Shown: piece by piece, positions 12,861-22,978 of the stretch
Position numbering within the stretch: the stretch's first letter is position 1
Layout of the letters: every line of letters starts with the position of its first letter
Source: Fidelibacterota bacterium
Lineage (GTDB): Bacteria; Fidelibacterota; Marinisomatia; SCGC-AAA003-L08; TS1B11
Assembly: GCA_020346745.1 (NCBI GenBank)
Contig: CP070787.1
Location: 2,104,174 to 2,156,850 of the forward strand
Direction: 5' to 3'
Length of the DNA stretch: 52,677 bases
Made by a program: the position numbers and the translations under genes
Notes under the pieces: generated by a model
What the model was told of the DNA's origin: nothing
Database searches by the model: none
The model's input: the letters and a program-made list of their open reading frames with translations, nothing else

Positions 12861-13998
12861 TCATCACCTCAAGTGTTGCCAGCCGGCGCCTGATCGATGG
12901 GTGGCTGTGAAACAGAAACTCCACCACCGGGTGTGGATCCCGGTCCGCCAGGTTGAGTTCGGCCAGTCGTTCCAAGCCTTCGGCTAGAGCTGAACTTTTA
13001 CCCAGCAGCTTGACCGAATACTGATCCGCAGCGAATTCGTGACGCCGGGAATAGGTATTGGTCAGCGGTCCAGTTACAAATCCGTATACGCCAAGGAATA
13101 AAGCCAGCCAGGGAAGTGTCGCCAAGGCTGCAACCTCACCATCCGATAAACTGACATGCAGACGTGCTACGACAAACAGCCCCAGGAAAGTCAGCACCAT
13201 CCCCAGAGCCATACCCTTCCAGATGTGCTTCAGTTTGAAGTGTCCCAGCTCATGGGCTAGCACTGCAAGGATCTCTTCATCGGAGAATTGATCGAGTAAA
13301 GTATCAGCGAGGAGTACCCGCTTCGCCCGGCCTAATCCCGTGAAGGCGGCGTTGGCCTTCTTGGTGGACTTGCTCAGGTTAAAACGATAGACTCCAGATA
13401 TGGCCATTCCCACTGTTGCACAAAGCTCCTCAATCCGTCTTTTCAGCGGCAGATCTTCTTCCAGGGGTTCGAACCTATAAAACAGGGGAAAGATCAAGAT
13501 CGGAGCTAGGCGTCCGAGTACAATGGAAAACAGGAACAGTAGCGATCCCACCGGCAGCCACCACCAGGCACCGAGAGTCCTGAGACACCAATAAAAGATC
13601 AAGGCGAGTGGCAGGCCAATGACGGCACCCACCAACAGGCTCTTTGTCCGCTCCCATATCCAGGCAGCTACCGTCTGGTTCGACAGGCTATAGCGATGTT
13701 CCACGATGTAGCTGCTGAAAAAGGACAAGGGCAATGAAAAGACGTGGGCAGCCACACCGGCGACCACTCCGAACAGCAAGAAATGAATATAGGGATTGGC
13801 ACTGAGCTCCGTGAATCGCGCCAGCCAGCCAGCCAAAGGCGTCATCACCAATACGAACAGGTAAGCCCAGTTCAGACCGGTGGATGCCAGTGAGAGGAAT
13901 AGCTTGGTTCGATGGTAGCGTTTTGGGACGTCAGGTGCGGTCAAGCCGTGGCGTCCTCCTCGGAGGCCAGCTTGAAGGTGTCCCGGGCAATGATCCAT
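12853..13998 (-). CDS. M48-family (Ste24/HtpX-like) zinc metalloprotease, integral membrane
   Basis: HELGHFKLKH zinc motif and multiple TM spans. ATG 13998 overlaps ackA by 58 nt. An alternative TTG at 13944 would give a TTGA overlap with the ackA stop. The stop overlaps the methyltransferase start by 8 nt. Confidence 0.85.
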   Translation of the reverse strand: MDHCPGHLQAGLRGGRHGLTAPDVPKRYHRTKLFLSLASTGLNWAYLFVLVMTPLAGWLARFTELSANPYIHFLLFGVVAGVAAHVFSLPLSFFSSYIVEHRYSLSNQTVAAWIWERTKSLLVGAVIGLPLALIFYWCLRTLGAWWWLPVGSLLFLFSIVLGRLAPILIFPLFYRFEPLEEDLPLKRRIEELCATVGMAISGVYRFNLSKSTKKANAAFTGLGRAKRVLLADTLLDQFSDEEILAVLAHELGHFKLKHIWKGMALGMVLTFLGLFVVARLHVSLSDGEVAALATLPWLALFLGVYGFVTGPLTNTYSRRHEFAADQYSVKLLGKSSALAEGLERLAELNLADRDPHPVVEFLFHSHPSIRRRLATLEVMNV

Positions 13999-15155
13999 TC
14001 CTCGTTGGTAGGAATAACCCAGATCTCACAGGGGGAATCATCGGTTGAGATCCGTTGCTCCGTTCCATCCTGTTCGTTCTTCTTCTCATCTAAAGCCAGC
14101 CCAAGGAATTCCAGCTCATTCACGGCCATTTTACGGATCAGGGAAGCATTCTCACCGATACCGCCAGTAAAGGCAACGCCATCCAGACCGCCCAGCACGG
14201 AAGCAAACGCTCCAATGTACTTCTTGATCCGATAGGCAAAGACCTGGATGGCCAGTTCCGCCCTGGTGTTTCCCTCTGCCATCTCGGCTAACACCTCCCG
14301 CATATCGCTACTCACGCCGGAGATGCCCAATAGTCCGCTGTGCTTGTTCAACAAGGCGATGGCCTCCCGCCGGCTTATCTCCTCCCTGCCCATAATGTGG
14401 AGGATAACTGCCGGGTCTACATCGCCACTGCGGCTGCCCATTAACAGCCCTTCCACTGGCGTGAATCCCATGGTAGTATCAACGCTTTGGCCATCATGAA
14501 TCGCCGCCATGGAACAGCCATTACCAAGGTGGATAGTCACTAGGCGCAGCGGACGATGATCAACCTGCGTCAGCTCCTGAAACCTTTCACTGACAAACCG
14601 GTGGCTCAGCCCATGGAAACCGTACCGCCGTATACCGTAGCGCCGGTACAGCATGTAGGGCAAGCCATAAAGGTACGCGTGTTTCGGCAAGGTGTGGTGA
14701 AAGGCGGTATCGAACACCGCTACGTTGATCGCATGGGGTATCAGTTGCCGGCCGGCTTCTATCCCCTTCAGATTATGGGGATTATGTAAGGGTGCCAGGT
14801 CTGCGAATCGATGCAGCTGATGGAGCACTTCGGGATCGATACGCACCGAAGCAGTGAACTTCTCTCCCCCATGTACAACCCGATGGCCTACCGCCTCAAT
14901 TTCTTCCTTGCTGTCAAGCACCCCTCGCTCCTTATCCGTGAGCACGGCGAGGATGTACTCTATAGCCTGCTGATGATCCAGAATTTCACCAGACAGGGAA
15001 ACCTCCTGCCCGTCCTCTTGCCGCGTCTGCTTGAGATACGCCCCCCTCAGTCCAATGCGGTCCACTACTCCGCGGACGAGAGTAAGCTGCTTATCCATTT
15101 TGAACAGCTGGTATTTGATAGTGCTGCTACCGGAGTTGAGCACGAGTATTTTCAT
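13941..15155 (-). CDS. ackA: Acetate kinase
   Basis: MKILVLNSGSSTIKYQLF N-terminus, GHRVVHGG, FDTAFH, RRYGFHGLSH. Confidence 0.95.
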   Translation of the reverse strand: MKILVLNSGSSTIKYQLFKMDKQLTLVRGVVDRIGLRGAYLKQTRQEDGQEVSLSGEILDHQQAIEYILAVLTDKERGVLDSKEEIEAVGHRVVHGGEKFTASVRIDPEVLHQLHRFADLAPLHNPHNLKGIEAGRQLIPHAINVAVFDTAFHHTLPKHAYLYGLPYMLYRRYGIRRYGFHGLSHRFVSERFQELTQVDHRPLRLVTIHLGNGCSMAAIHDGQSVDTTMGFTPVEGLLMGSRSGDVDPAVILHIMGREEISRREAIALLNKHSGLLGISGVSSDMREVLAEMAEGNTRAELAIQVFAYRIKKYIGAFASVLGGLDGVAFTGGIGENASLIRKMAVNELEFLGLALDEKKNEQDGTEQRISTDDSPCEIWVIPTNEEWIIARDTFKLASEEDATA

Positions 15156-17947: not shown

Positions 17948-20900
17948 TTAAAAATCAAGGCCGATGGTTAGGTACCAGTTACGGCTGCGATCACCATCGG
18001 GGGACTTATACGGCCGGGCAAAATCCAGCTGGAATGGCAGGCCGAAAAGCAGGAAGCGGGGTCCCCATCCATATGTGATGACACCGGACTGATCACCGGT
18101 ACTACTGTCCCAGACGGTGGCTGCATCGATAAACAGCACCCCGCCCAGTTGCCCGAGGATGCGCAGAGCTGGAAAATAATAAACGAGGAAAGGAAAGCGA
18201 TATTCAAGGTTCATCAGGAGTGCCCGGTCGCCGACCAGCTCCATCATCTGAGTACCGCGAAGGGGAGTGACATACTCCGAAAAATAGATGGTCTTGAGCT
18301 GCTGTTCCTCCAAACCCAGGGGATCCTGCTTATAACGCCCACCGTAGTAGCCTCTATTTTCCGAACTAAAGAGCCAGGGCAATCCCCCGACGAGGAAGTT
18401 TTGTGCATCTTCCCCTACATTTACCAGACGGCGATCCCGGAGACGGAGGTCGTAGCTAGCCCCGCCAGATAGTCGGATGGCTCCACTTGTGCCGGCAAAG
18501 AGCCGGAAATAACGCCGGAAATCCAGGGTAATGGTTTGGAAGGAAATGCCATTTCTCCCCCACTTGGGGCTCATACCAAAGCTGACGTTTGTCCGCCAAC
18601 CATTCACTGGATGGAGATAATCCCACTCCGCATTGTCCCAGACTAGACCCATCCGGGGCATGAAAGTCGCCAGAGTTTCGGTAGACAGCGGACGCAGAAC
18701 ATAGTCCGAATGAAGAAGATATTCAGTATGTTCCACCGTATTTGCGGTTAATCCCAGATCCAGCCGTTGGAACCGATTAAATGGTAGGGATGCCGTGACA
18801 TCTACGCCGTAGTGTCTCAGTCGGCCCCCGCCGTAAGAGGTAGGATAGAAATATGCGGTGTGGAATAATGTGAAGTAATAGTTCGTCCTGTATGGCAGCA
18901 GGTGATAAGTGAGAAAATAATCCGAATTTTCCAGGGAGATCTGCATTTCCGTGGCAATGGAAATCCGATGATTCCCCAGCATATCACTGAACATGAATTG
19001 GGTCATCCCCTGGAAGCTGTAGAGGGTACTGTACCCAGCATAGCTCTGAACCAGATCCAGCGTGAACCGGGTCTTATAGGGATGTATACGATAACGTCCA
19101 CCCTCATCCTTAAAGTCTTGTTCTTCCAGCTGCACCCCTAGCAAGGAGTCTTCAGGCTCGCTGGCAAAGGCAGCCGGGTCGTCAATTCCAAAAATGTAAT
19201 TATCGTAGCCGCCCTCCATAGTCGGATAACTGCGGTCCCGATCGACATTCACCAATATCTCCTCAACCGTGGCGGTGTCCGTCAGCATGTAATTGGAAAG
19301 GGACACCTCCTTGGGTTGAGTCCATAATTCAAGGGGACTATGAATCCGATAGATATCATAGCCTGCTTTCTCAAATCCTGTGAAATAGAGTCGGCTGTCA
19401 TCCGAGGCCATATTGAGGTCGCTGATGCCCGTCAGGATATTGGTAACAGCCTGTTCCTGCCCCGTCTCAAGATGCAACATGTAAATATTGTTGATGCCGG
19501 ATCGGTCGCTGGTATAATACATATACGGCGCCGTATGGGCGTATACTGGGAAGTCATCACGAGCTGCATCCTGGGTCATGCGACGGAGATTGGACCCATC
19601 CCTATCGATCGTAAAAATGTCCAGCTGGCCGGTATCGTGTTCATGCATTTGGAAATCAGGTTCAACAGATGATAGTGCGCTATCGCCCTGGGGAGTATTC
19701 CTCAGTTGGAAGGCATAGCGATTACCATCCTGGTCAAAACGGTAGGGTGGATAGTCACCCCGATCAGAGCTGAATGCCAGCGTCATTCCATCAGGTGACC
19801 AGACAGGATTGAACTCACTGAACACATCGTCGGTCAGGTTGGATACGTCTTCCGTCTCCAAGTCCAGCAGGTAGATGTCACTGCTCATGCCGCTGTTCCC
19901 GATGATAGCGATGGTACCACCATCAGGACTCCAGGCAGCCATGAACAAGCCTTCCAATCCCGTGGGATATTTCTTCATCTTCTTGGTCTTAATATCAACG
20001 ACGTATAGAATCTCCTGACTGGCTGCTTTAGCGGTAAATGCCACCTTCTTACCATCGGGAGACCATGTTATTCCAGGTTTGAGCAGGTGCAGCTCCTCAA
20101 ACTCAGAGGTGGTGCCTCCCCGGATCAGGCTTTTCAGAAAACGACCGTCGGTGGCGGAGATCAGGACAATCTCCATGATGCCATGGGTGTTGCGCATAAT
20201 GGCTAACTTGCTGCCATCAGGCGAAATAGAGGGCGCGATGTTGTAGACATTTTCCAGTTTTTCGTGGTCCGTAACCGGGTGAGCAATGTCTTTAAGCCGA
20301 TCACGACCCACAACATCAGGCCAATACTGTTTCTTCAGATACTCCTTCCACTGGTCGGTAAGGAGCTCATAATCGGCACCAATCGCAGATTCGATGCCCC
20401 GCTCTACGTTGCCCCTCATCTTGATTCGACTGAATATCTCTGCGATAGCTTCCTCACCATATTTACTAGTCATATACCGCCATAGGGATTGTCCACTGCG
20501 ATATGCATAATAGCCGGAAATCTGTTGGATAGGTGGGATATCTCCATGGTGAGCCAGATCCCGCATATACATGTCAGAGTGGGCATCCCAGCCGCCGGCA
20601 AGATAATCTGCCAGTCCTTCATTCATCCAACCTGGGATAGCATACCGTATCCTGCCGCTGATGATGGATTGAACATTGCCGCCGTAAACCATGTCATTGA
20701 TAAGGGCATGGACCAGCTCGTGGCGGATCACGTGCCGGAAATCTTTCCAGCTGCCTTCAAAGGGCACGACTACGCGATTCTTGAGTAGTTCCGTGACGCC
20801 ACCAATCCCCTCGTACATGTAGCTGAAGGTCACGTTGGTCTGCTGGAAGTCAGCGTGCGACTGGTAGACCATGATGGAGACACGCTTTTGAAGCTGCCAA

Positions 20901-21121
20901 TTTAACCGATCAGAAATCTGGCTGTAGGCCTGGTTCGCTACCTCAGAAGTGAATTCGGCCAGTCGCAGGTTGTCCCCGTAAAAATAGACATCGAAGTAGG
21001 GAGACTGAATATAGCGCCACTCGTACTGGTCGTACTGCACGATATTTTGGCCGAATTGCCCCAGAAGAGGGCTTATCAGCAGAGCTGACAAGACAAGAAT
21101 GAAAATACGAAATCGCCGCAT
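17948..21121 (-). CDS. Outer-membrane Omp85-type barrel fused to a periplasmic MA-clan HExxH peptidase domain and a TolB-like (PD40) beta-propeller
   Basis: Signal peptide MRRFRIFILVLSALLISPLLGQ. HELVH..WMNEGLADY (Peptidase_MA_2-like). Repeated SPDG propeller motifs: ISPDGSKLA, WSPDGKKVAF, WSPDGGTIA, WSPDGMTLAF. The C-terminus carries Omp85 hallmarks: TPLRGTQ, NLEYRFPF, FIDAATVW, GWGPRF, and a terminal F. Confidence 0.75.
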   Translation of the reverse strand: MRRFRIFILVLSALLISPLLGQFGQNIVQYDQYEWRYIQSPYFDVYFYGDNLRLAEFTSEVANQAYSQISDRLNWQLQKRVSIMVYQSHADFQQTNVTFSYMYEGIGGVTELLKNRVVVPFEGSWKDFRHVIRHELVHALINDMVYGGNVQSIISGRIRYAIPGWMNEGLADYLAGGWDAHSDMYMRDLAHHGDIPPIQQISGYYAYRSGQSLWRYMTSKYGEEAIAEIFSRIKMRGNVERGIESAIGADYELLTDQWKEYLKKQYWPDVVGRDRLKDIAHPVTDHEKLENVYNIAPSISPDGSKLAIMRNTHGIMEIVLISATDGRFLKSLIRGGTTSEFEELHLLKPGITWSPDGKKVAFTAKAASQEILYVVDIKTKKMKKYPTGLEGLFMAAWSPDGGTIAIIGNSGMSSDIYLLDLETEDVSNLTDDVFSEFNPVWSPDGMTLAFSSDRGDYPPYRFDQDGNRYAFQLRNTPQGDSALSSVEPDFQMHEHDTGQLDIFTIDRDGSNLRRMTQDAARDDFPVYAHTAPYMYYTSDRSGINNIYMLHLETGQEQAVTNILTGISDLNMASDDSRLYFTGFEKAGYDIYRIHSPLELWTQPKEVSLSNYMLTDTATVEEILVNVDRDRSYPTMEGGYDNYIFGIDDPAAFASEPEDSLLGVQLEEQDFKDEGGRYRIHPYKTRFTLDLVQSYAGYSTLYSFQGMTQFMFSDMLGNHRISIATEMQISLENSDYFLTYHLLPYRTNYYFTLFHTAYFYPTSYGGGRLRHYGVDVTASLPFNRFQRLDLGLTANTVEHTEYLLHSDYVLRPLSTETLATFMPRMGLVWDNAEWDYLHPVNGWRTNVSFGMSPKWGRNGISFQTITLDFRRYFRLFAGTSGAIRLSGGASYDLRLRDRRLVNVGEDAQNFLVGGLPWLFSSENRGYYGGRYKQDPLGLEEQQLKTIYFSEYVTPLRGTQMMELVGDRALLMNLEYRFPFLVYYFPALRILGQLGGVLFIDAATVWDSSTGDQSGVITYGWGPRFLLFGLPFQLDFARPYKSPDGDRSRNWYLTIGLDF

Positions 21122-21322: not shown

Positions 21323-21775
21323 TCAGAGAACCCGCCGCAGCTCATCGAGGAGCTGTTGCTTGTTCGCTCGGGAGATTTCTCGGCCTTGGAGCTCGAGGCC
21401 GGGTGTACGGCGGGCAATCTCCCGCAATTCCCGCACTGGGAGGTTTGACAATTCCTCACGCAATGGATGACCCCCAGATGGCGCGCCCGGAGCTCCGGGA
21501 TGGATAAGCACCCTATCCGTTTCAGAATGGGGCCGGGGAATCACATGAGTGGAGACTAACTCACCAACCTTCTCCGCCGCGGCAGCTCCAGCCGCAACGC
21601 TGGCACGCACCGCACCCGTCTCCCCCTCAACCTTTATGGTCACCAGGGCTGCTCTGGTCACTTCTTTGCCGAGGAGCCGGACCTTTGCGGCTTTGACCAT
21701 TGCATCGGCCGCTTCAATGGCAGCGACTAATCCCCGGGTCTCAACCAACCCGAGGGCCTTCTCAGCACTTGTCAT
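21323..21775 (-). CDS. BMC-H shell protein with a divergent pore loop and a C-terminal Pro/Gly linker plus SAP/Rho-N-like helix-extension-helix tail
   Basis: [56 protein letters not shown] is a BMC (Pfam00936-type) domain. The tail reads HPGAPGAPSGGHP...LSNLPVRELREIARRTPGLELQGREISRANKQQLLDELRRVL. Confidence 0.9.
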   Translation of the reverse strand: MTSAEKALGLVETRGLVAAIEAADAMVKAAKVRLLGKEVTRAALVTIKVEGETGAVRASVAAGAAAAEKVGELVSTHVIPRPHSETDRVLIHPGAPGAPSGGHPLREELSNLPVRELREIARRTPGLELQGREISRANKQQLLDELRRVL

Positions 21776-21786
21776 AAGTTGGGGAA

Positions 21787-22071
21787 CTATTCTGTTTTAG
21801 GTAAAATGGATTCCACATCGCTGTGGGGACGCGGAATCACGTGCACTGAAACCAGTTCGCCCACTTTCTCGGCAGCGGAGGCTCCAGCATCCGTTGCAGC
21901 CTTAACTGCTCCCACATCGCCTCGGACCATCACGGTGACAAATCCACCACCAATCTTTTCCTTGCCGATCAGACGCACATTGGCTGCCTTCACCATCGCA
22001 TCCGCTGCCTCAATAGAGCCAATAAGTCCGCGTGTTTCAACCATACCTAGCGCATCGAGGGAAATTGGCAA
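21787..22071 (-). CDS. Canonical BMC-H shell protein (PduA/EutM/CcmK-like)
   Basis: 94 aa. [80 protein letters not shown] start 6 nt after AGGAGG. Confidence 0.95.
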
Positions 22072-22240
22072 AATTGGCCTCCTGAATTGTGTATCATTTG
22101 AAAGTTAGTAAAATTGGGGTGTGCCTCTGGCAAGTCGTTGATTTATTAAGCAAATTTTACCCGCCCCCTCTGCAAATGTCAACTCATTTCTCCCAATATT
22201 GCGTTGCCTCTCCGACGGGCAGCGCCTAATTTCACCACCG

Positions 22241-22978
22241 ATGACCACCCCGGCTTACTTTATATCCGACGTACATCTCACACTCGACGACGGTGAACCC
22301 GAACAGGAAAGAAGACGCCACCTGTTTAAATTCTTCGACATGATCGGTCAATCAGGGGGCACACTTTTTATTGTCGGAGATTTCTTCGACTTCTGGTTCG
22401 AATATAACCACGTCATACCCAAACGCTATTTCGACGTCGTCAGCCAACTACGACAACTCCGTACCAGAGGGGTGGAGATTCACTTTATCCTGGGTAATCA
22501 CGACTACTGGACCAACGACTTCCTCAACAGCTCCATGGGAATACAGGTGTATCCGGATACAGCCGAGGTAGAGATTGATGGTCACCGGATTCATCTGACT
22601 CATGGTGACGGATTGCTGGCGGAAGACACGGGTTACCGATTGATGCGGAAAATCCTCCGGAGCCGAGTTACCGTCTTTCTCTATCGCTGTCTCCACCCGG
22701 ATCTGGGCATCAAACTGGCTCAATCGGCGTCGCGGCTCAGCCGTAAAAACAACCCTCCAAGAGGCAACCAAGATGCCACATTCGACGAGCTTTCCCAATA
22801 TGCCCATGACCGTTGGGCTGAGGGATATGACATTGTAATAATGGGACACTACCACCTGAACCGCCTCCACATCGGTCAGGACGGTAGAAGTTTTCTTTGC
22901 CTAGGAGACTGGATTTCCCACTATACTTATGGCAAATTATCGCAGGATCGCCTGACCCTGGAAACCTGGCTTATCTGA
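22241..22978 (+). CDS. lpxH: UDP-2,3-diacylglucosamine diphosphatase
   Basis: Trimmed to ATG 22241. Calcineurin-like motifs ISDVHL, GDFFDFW, GNHDYW, HGD, GHYH, and the LpxH-type C-terminal LGDW. Confidence 0.88.
   Translation: MTTPAYFISDVHLTLDDGEPEQERRRHLFKFFDMIGQSGGTLFIVGDFFDFWFEYNHVIPKRYFDVVSQLRQLRTRGVEIHFILGNHDYWTNDFLNSSMGIQVYPDTAEVEIDGHRIHLTHGDGLLAEDTGYRLMRKILRSRVTVFLYRCLHPDLGIKLAQSASRLSRKNNPPRGNQDATFDELSQYAHDRWAEGYDIVIMGHYHLNRLHIGQDGRSFLCLGDWISHYTYGKLSQDRLTLETWLI

Follow-up and report, generated by a model that had tools for sequence, protein, structure and literature searches.

Two shell genes on the minus strand

This study concerns two adjacent genes for hexameric shell proteins (BMC-H) of bacterial microcompartments (BMCs) in a 52.7-kb stretch of a Fidelibacterota genome (52,677 nucleotides of contig CP070787.1, called the window below), the compartment to which they may belong, and the C-terminal tail carried by the second of them. 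Both genes lie on the minus strand and, according to the open reading frame (ORF) listing and the raw sequence, are separated by a gap of 11 nt. The first, H1 (21787..22071, minus strand), encodes a 94-aa basal BMC-H with a TTG start, KAAN and PRPH edge motifs and the pore loop KIGGGF. It matched Pfam PF00936 with E=1.3e-29 and 102.4 bits (cutoff 24.5) and the NCBIfam EutM model with 135 bits, which exceeds the cutoff of 133, in agreement with the first-pass annotation of this DNA, where a 94-aa PduA/EutM-like protein had been recognised from the sequence alone. Identity to PduA was 73% with an approximate PduA sequence as query, and the orthologues of H1 in related loci were 88-98% identical.

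The second gene, H2 (21323-21775, minus strand), encodes a protein of 150 aa that continues for about 68 residues beyond its PRPH motif. Its BMC domain (residues 7-82; 21530..21757, minus strand) matched PF00936 with E=3.8e-25 and 88.1 bits (cutoff again 24.5) and was modelled by AlphaFold2 (AF2) with a predicted local distance difference test score (pLDDT) of 95-98; as a monomer, the model was matched by Foldseek to EutM, PduA and CutN (E ~1e-11, TMt ~0.9). The edge motifs are PRPH and KAAK, the latter being KAAN in most orthologues, and the pore loop is VTRAAL, as compared with KIGGGF in H1 and KIGSGL in PduA (approximate sequence). The proposal of a second BMC domain with an altered pore loop 11 nt downstream of H1 was therefore correct. 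Edge motifs of the KAAN/PRPH type have been defined for BMC-H (PMC8217296), and both proteins possess them in addition to their PF00936 scores. More than 100 homologues of H2 were recovered, generally of about 150-156 aa and 55-82% identical across 93-100% of the length.

The signals around the two genes are unequal. A Shine-Dalgarno (SD) sequence, AGGAGG, could be read at 22078..22083 (minus strand), 6 nt 5' of the TTG start of H1. In all seven loci compared (the window and the related loci L001, L002, L003, L005, L008 and L009) a strong SD (AGGAGG, AAGGAG or GGAGG) was present before H1 and none before H2, the gap in the window being 21776-21786. This asymmetry suggests a major/minor expression ratio of the two hexamers that is built into the sequence; one of them appears to be the major product of the pair and the other the minor one. 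A sigma-70-like promoter match (TTGACA-17 nt-TAAAAT, 11/12 positions; 22154..22182, minus strand), which is a pattern match from a consensus scan, lies 5' of H1 in the 127-bp divergent intergenic region that H1 shares with an LpxH-like gene. Within the 3' end of H1 (21809-21838, minus strand), about 35 nt before the start of H2, an 11-bp hairpin precedes a T-rich stretch; this is a weak pattern match, which could possibly attenuate read-through into H2.

The C-terminal domain of H2

Behind the BMC domain, H2 consists of a Pro/Gly-rich, flexible linker (residues 88-108; 21452..21514, minus strand; pLDDT ~61-65) and a tail (residues 109-150; 21326..21451, minus strand) that is predicted to form a small basic helical bundle resembling Rho_N and other helix-extension-helix (HeH) modules. 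In an alignment of 27 orthologues the mean pairwise identity was 74% in the BMC domain, 12% in the linker and 57% in the 42-residue tail. The linker spanned 14-33 residues, the net charge of the tail ranged from 0 to +8, and eight tail residues were invariant (V114, R118, A121, R122, G131, R132, A137 and L142). Modelled alone by AF2, the tail gave four short helices with a pLDDT of 92.6. The first-pass annotation had allowed for a tail that was disordered and not conserved in orthologues; the opposite was observed, and since it is both ordered and conserved the tail can be regarded as a genuine domain.

The only Pfam family matched by the tail was Rho_N (PF07498), which belongs among the SAP/LEM-like HeH motifs. 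The match of the window tail (18.9 bits, E=0.0014) was below the gathering threshold of 24.9, while nine of 36 orthologous tails matched at E<=0.01, the best with 26.2 bits and thus above that threshold. No Pfam match to SAP (PF02037) was obtained with the window tail, and a single one of the 36 orthologous tails matched it (E=0.003). In a Foldseek search of the PDB with the tail model, a query of 47 residues, Rho accounted for 12 of the 16 top hits at E values of 1-7, which are high owing to the short query, with 22-34% identity, TMq 0.55-0.67 and a root-mean-square deviation of 1.6-3.1 A for 37-43 aligned residues. By these values the N-terminal bundle of Rho appears alike in helix arrangement and length, and the identity of about 30% includes the ELxNxPVxEL start. 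On the other hand, the tail of H2 forms the C-terminus of a BMC-domain protein and lacks the OB-fold that comes next in Rho, its invariant arginines are family-specific, and in an alignment by eye its inter-helix loop appears to be about four residues longer. Nothing significant was found when the tail profile was searched against PDB sequences (best E=0.019, mL116), and hhalign of the profile with a single, approximate E. coli Rho sequence gave a probability of 2% over 18 columns (tail positions 3-20). Taken together, the tail is best described as a divergent helical module of the Rho_N/HeH type, for which the resemblance is supported and family membership is borderline. In the earlier description of a Pro/Gly linker and a basic SAP/Rho-N-like tail of about 40 aa, the linker and the resemblance to Rho_N are supported. 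No paper linking Rho_N to any BMC protein was found.

An exhaustive profile search with the tail against 1.84 billion cluster representatives yielded 701 matches at E<=1e-3, of which 379 reached E<=1e-10, each match being a cluster at 50% identity, and the tail was always C-terminal. An N-terminal BMC domain was present in 113 of the 149 best matches and nearly all the others were short fragments, so that the module, judged from these 149 sequences, seems essentially dedicated to BMC shell proteins. The proteins bearing it were up to 467 aa long, so that the shortest linkers have about 20 residues and the longest more than 250. In long-linker forms (P0303, P0332, P0351, P0370, P0393, P0395, P0419 and P0435) a second short conserved motif, D[TS][IL]xxLRxEA (e.g., DTLAKLRAEAKSE), was observed in the linker upstream of the terminal domain; it was not seen in the short-linker H2 of the window. 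The long-linker forms may correspond to the "large extension" of the published BMC locus type FRAG1.

A vertex protein and its operon in related genomes

The pentameric vertex protein (BMC-P) and the usual cargo enzymes are not encoded near the pair. Queries with BMC-P, DeoC, mutase and nucleoside phosphorylase in tblastn of the 52.7-kb window gave a best E of 0.057, the Pfam scans of its 46 ORFs revealed only housekeeping and envelope genes, and by the same two approaches no aldehyde dehydrogenase or PduL was detected in the window. The absence of a vertex protein and cargo from the 52 kb, as first reported, was hence confirmed.

The description of the pair as an orphan was not. A protein search with the BMC-P of the related locus L074 as query retrieved P0270, a 92-aa EutN/CcmL protein of a Fidelibacterota bacterium, whose longest contig measures 3,111,976 bp, exactly as for H2 of the window; a KSB1-seeded search had returned KSB1- and Calditrichota-like proteins only. 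Fidelibacterota is the current name of Marinimicrobia, which agrees with the names on the closest relatives of H2. This suggests that P0270 is a BMC-P encoded outside the window on the window's own 3.11-Mb contig. A protein 85% identical to it, P0274, sits in an operon between a PGM/PMM-family mutase and DeoC, and one of the samples containing it, a JGI sample, also holds the closest relative of the H1-H2 pair. In another relative a single 216-kb contig carries both the mutase/BMC-P/DeoC operon and the pair, with 45 kb between them; if that spacing were kept here, P0270 would be located about 15 kb past the end of the window. In KSB1-like genomes (L003, L009, L014 and L017) an operon of mutase, BMC-P, DeoC and pyrimidine-nucleoside phosphorylase lies about 5 kb from the pair.

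In a scan of genome contigs with a BMC-P alignment profile, which covered the best 80 of 426 relatives, the mutase/BMC-P/DeoC module proved widespread. Besides one Neomarinimicrobiota genome (L074), it was present in KSB1, Calditrichota, LCP-89, Gemmatimonadota and Planctomycetota, the Planctomycetota version containing three adjacent BMC-P genes. DeoC adjoined BMC-P in the Marinimicrobia relatives L074 and L090-L093 as well as in KSB1, Calditrichota and other loci. No other shell gene, aldehyde dehydrogenase or RpiB was found within 10 kb of a DeoC-adjacent BMC-P in any relative examined.

The DeoC proteins adjacent to BMC-P share a conserved N-terminal extension of 60-75 residues, and alignment to the canonical deoC model begins no earlier than residue 72. 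This extension opens with an amphipathic helix (e.g., MSLDALIDRIVDEM), in many loci followed by a CNWCWVCPxC motif, and it is kept in more than 40 loci (L003:4163-4984, L009:7198-8073, L074:10297-11169, L090:10296-11165 and about 40 more). It looks like an encapsulation peptide combined with a possible metal or redox site, although searches with encapsulation-peptide hidden Markov models (HMMs) were reportedly negative in genomes of the FRAG types (PMC8217296). Together with the module itself, this encapsulation-peptide-like and Cys-rich extension suggests that the reaction enclosed is the cleavage of deoxyribose phosphate. In three Marinimicrobia loci (L074:10917-15917, L090:11236-14125 and L091:11333-14196) the module was directly followed by a citrate-lyase-like CitE/ACP fusion and CitF, after which aconitase, isocitrate dehydrogenase and PrpD came in two of them, L090 and L091. 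The place behind DeoC is instead taken by pyrimidine-nucleoside phosphorylase in KSB1-like genomes.

Probable assignment to a fragmented BMC type

A satellite locus has been defined by the presence of only PF00936 or only PF03319 with contiguous shell genes (Axen et al. 2014, PMC4207490). The window contains two adjacent PF00936 genes and no PF03319 in 52.7 kb, and of the two options first put forward for the pair, a satellite shell locus is the one favoured by P0270 and by the BMC-P/DeoC operon of the relatives. The first-pass annotation had reserved the term ordinary satellite for the case of a complete BMC locus elsewhere in the genome. This holds in part: the BMC-P P0270 would make H1 and H2 satellite genes, but the "main locus" is, by orthology, itself fragmentary. 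Because the BMC-P operon, as known from orthologues, is also without PF00936, the genome looks fragmented rather than organised as a main locus plus satellite.

Fragmented (FRAG) loci, with shell genes in up to six genomic places, are an established category (Sutter et al. 2021, PMC8217296 Supplementary Data 2). FRAG1, FRAG3 and FRAG8 each combine one standard BMC-H with one that has a C-terminal extension, FRAG3 has DeoC (pfam01791) beside BMC-P, and the BMC-P of FRAG types form a triplet of the green, grey and orange clades (PMC8217296). In the genome studied here the shell genes are dispersed, with the pair inside the window and P0270 outside it (45 kb apart in a relative), and a standard BMC-H of 94 aa (H1) is accompanied by an extended one of 150 aa (H2). 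The window thus fits the FRAG description point by point, the BMC-P triplet excepted. Scattered shell genes and hosts from the FCB group and candidate phyla are shared with FRAG3, FRAG1 and FRAG8, as is, going by the relatives, DeoC adjoining BMC-P. FRAG3, however, was published from Calditrichaeota, KSB1 and LCP-89, whereas the present pair is from Marinimicrobia; it is a Marinimicrobia example of a kind already catalogued, closest to FRAG3. The SPU type is similar in that DeoC is the aldehyde-generating signature enzyme and the proposed substrate is deoxyribose phosphate derived from DNA or nucleosides. It differs in that RpiB and aldehyde dehydrogenase are not found beside BMC-P/DeoC in the relatives, in that the shell genes are dispersed here, and in the PGM/PMM-family mutase, to which pyrimidine-nucleoside phosphorylase is added in KSB1-like genomes.

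On these results, membership of the pair in a dispersed BMC is highly probable. That the pair is the hexamer-encoding fragment of a dispersed, FRAG-type and SPU-like BMC of Fidelibacterota is the best explanation of the whole and is considered probable, to a somewhat lesser degree. Several points weigh against it. The Marinimicrobia type in the catalogue, FRAG4, has a standard BMC-H only, together with an ACT-domain protein, and no extended BMC-H (PMC8217296). P0270 is tied to the genome of the window by matching contig size and taxon, its operon context is that of its orthologues, and the parts recovered for this genome comprise one BMC-P but no triplet, aldehyde dehydrogenase or phosphotransacylase. 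With regard to the tail, the window sequence stays under the Rho_N gathering threshold, the Foldseek E values are about 1-7 for a short domain, the net charge is no more than 0 to +8, and a domain confined to BMC-H would fit a BMC-specific protein partner just as well.

What is added to the catalogue is incremental, namely the fold assigned to the tail and its specificity for BMC proteins, the unequal SD signals of the two genes, the encapsulation-peptide-like extension of DeoC and the adjacency to an LpxH-like gene across phyla. The FRAG catalogue names no fold for the BMC-H extension; the prediction of a defined and confidently folded Rho_N/HeH-like domain would make a positioning or tethering role of the extended BMC-H of FRAG types directly testable.

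Proposed mechanism and the role of the tail

In the mechanism proposed here, H1, with its strong SD and its KAAN and PRPH edge motifs, is probably the abundant basal facet hexamer. H2 would be a minor hexamer with a different pore and, as it keeps the edge motifs, could take its place in the facets alongside H1. At least one vertex protein, P0270, would be supplied from elsewhere on the 3.11-Mb contig, where by orthology it should lie between a PGM/PMM-family mutase, presumed to be a phosphopentomutase, and DeoC. The compartment would enclose DeoC, the presumed cargo in this genome, and convert deoxyribose-5-phosphate to acetaldehyde, the former being provided by nucleoside phosphorylase and the PGM/PMM-type mutase. 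The same logic has been proposed for SPU and FRAG3 BMCs feeding on DNA-derived nucleosides. Marinimicrobia are abundant in the dark ocean and a DNA-scavenging organelle there would, if true, matter ecologically.

In canonical BMC-H, as in PduA/CcmK-type structures, the termini are on the concave face of the hexamer. The concave side of shell hexamers points outward (PMC6787980), and from the two together it would follow that six tails per H2 hexamer project into the cytosol. There, the tail may serve as a tether or positioning device for the compartment, with the nucleoid, another nucleic acid or a positioning partner as its target. A tethering role of this kind is the favoured one, but tentative and somewhat less probable than not; the most likely ligand of the tail would be nucleic acid, with a BMC-specific protein partner as the main rival. 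The precedent is EutK, the tail of which is of the helix-turn-helix type and thus of another fold than that of H2. EutK likewise has a single BMC domain with a C-terminal domain behind it that is folded and positively charged, and as a minor shell component with a positioning role (PMC12487888) it is comparable to H2, the presumed minor hexamer. When eutK is deleted, Eut BMCs stay at the poles and are static, and EutK and PduK set BMC positioning; the basic C-terminal domain of EutK has been proposed to bind nucleotides, and PduK behaves alike (PMC12487888). The two proteins differ, however, in that the NCBIfam EutK model scores 79 bits on H2 against a cutoff of 218, with model positions 3-86 (the BMC domain) alone aligning, and in that EutK is encoded within a complete eut operon.

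In its most specific form, the tail would be a BMC-dedicated nucleic-acid tether that anchors a deoxyribose-catabolising compartment to the nucleoid, DNA or RNA with six copies per H2 hexamer. This form is speculative and, on balance, rather unlikely. If true, no ParA/McdAB-type system would be needed to segregate and position the compartment, the apparent job of EutK would have been solved a second time by independent evolution, and the tether would be widespread, given the 701 clusters at 50% identity and the linkers of 20 to >250 residues.

Alternatively, the tail could be a protein-protein adaptor that recruits a BMC-specific partner, which may be cargo (through the N-terminal extension of DeoC), a shell protein or a ParA/McdA-like ATPase. 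The N-terminal bundle of Rho itself makes protein contacts in termination complexes, and an adaptor would be in line with the near confinement of this domain subfamily to BMC-H, with the absence of the invariant R118, R122 and R132 from E. coli Rho (by eye, with an approximate Rho sequence) and with tether-like linkers that can exceed 250 residues. However, no partner has been identified, recruitment of cargo needs a luminal tail whereas the concave face with the termini is directed outward, and the negative encapsulation-peptide HMM searches in FRAG genomes tell against a cargo partner as well. This explanation is therefore regarded as unlikely, though it is the strongest of the alternatives to a tail that binds nucleic acid.

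As to the dispersed FRAG-type compartment, two alternatives were weighed. The pair might be an ordinary satellite of a classical, complete BMC operon elsewhere in the genome, e.g., one of the SPU3 type, since SPU3 loci occur in some Marinimicrobia. This is improbable because the DeoC-adjacent BMC-P stands alone in every relative examined, with no further shell gene, aldehyde dehydrogenase or RpiB within 10 kb, and because the pairing of a standard with an extended BMC-H is a hallmark of FRAG1, FRAG3 and FRAG8 and not of SPU3 (PMC8217296). Least probable is a use of H1 and H2 without pentamers and independent of any compartment, in which they would form sheets, tubes or a scaffold and be tethered to the envelope or to nucleic acid, an option of the first-pass annotation for which no positive evidence was obtained: the promoter-like site of the pair, the lack of a BMC partner within 52 kb, the constant LpxH-like neighbour across phyla and the Omp85-peptidase fusion beside the pair in Marinimicrobia could be cited for it, but P0270 is encoded on a contig of the same size, in relatives the pair and the BMC-P/DeoC operon lie on one contig at a distance of 5 kb or 45 kb, both hexamers retain the facet edge motifs of closed shells, and the same pairing is found in catalogued BMC types with BMC-P triplets (PMC8217296).

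Genomic neighbourhood

The gene divergent from H1 (22199..22978, plus strand) encodes an LpxH-like metallophosphoesterase (Pfam Metallophos), which scored 111 bits with the NCBIfam LpxH model, under the cutoff of 134, and which is context and not a proven component of the system. It divergently adjoins the pair in L001-L003, L005-L010, L014 and L017, and it is the sole neighbour of the pair common to Marinimicrobia-like and KSB1-like genomes. In the Marinimicrobia-like genomes L001, L002 and L008 the order is kept as LpxH-like gene (divergent), H1, H2, a peptidase-propeller-Omp85 fusion and tgt, whereas in the KSB1-like genomes (L003, L009, L014 and L017) the LpxH-like/H1/H2 unit has other surroundings. 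The fusion in the window (17948-21121, minus strand) is a protein of 1057 aa with an N-terminal MA-clan peptidase (Peptidase_MA), PD40/tricorn-like beta-propellers and a C-terminal Omp85 barrel. This is an unusual architecture for an outer-membrane protease, and in L001, L002 and L008 the gene is located directly downstream of the pair.

The housekeeping and envelope genes identified by Pfam in the window included lpxD, skp, bamA, uppS, kdsA/B/C/D-like genes, an lptB-like gene, pyrG, a MacB-type ABC gene, ackA, tgt and others, and no RNA family was detected anywhere in the window with Rfam. An association of acetate kinase with BMCs is found in the MIC4 and SPU-like types. Here, ackA (13941-15155, minus strand) lies 6 kb from the pair and adjoins a 3-hydroxyacyl-CoA dehydrogenase and a NUDIX gene; it was considered as a BMC-linked gene and set aside, as its synteny extends to L001 and L008 but does not include L002 and as it is probably a housekeeping gene. 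Horizontal acquisition of the pair was likewise rejected in view of its synteny with housekeeping genes across the phylum and of its GC content (57.8%), which is close to that of the window (53.6%). In L002 (L002:2373-3123) a HicA/HicB toxin-antitoxin pair is inserted beside a 73-aa fragment of an ornithine/aspartate carbamoyltransferase, of which an intact copy is present alongside.

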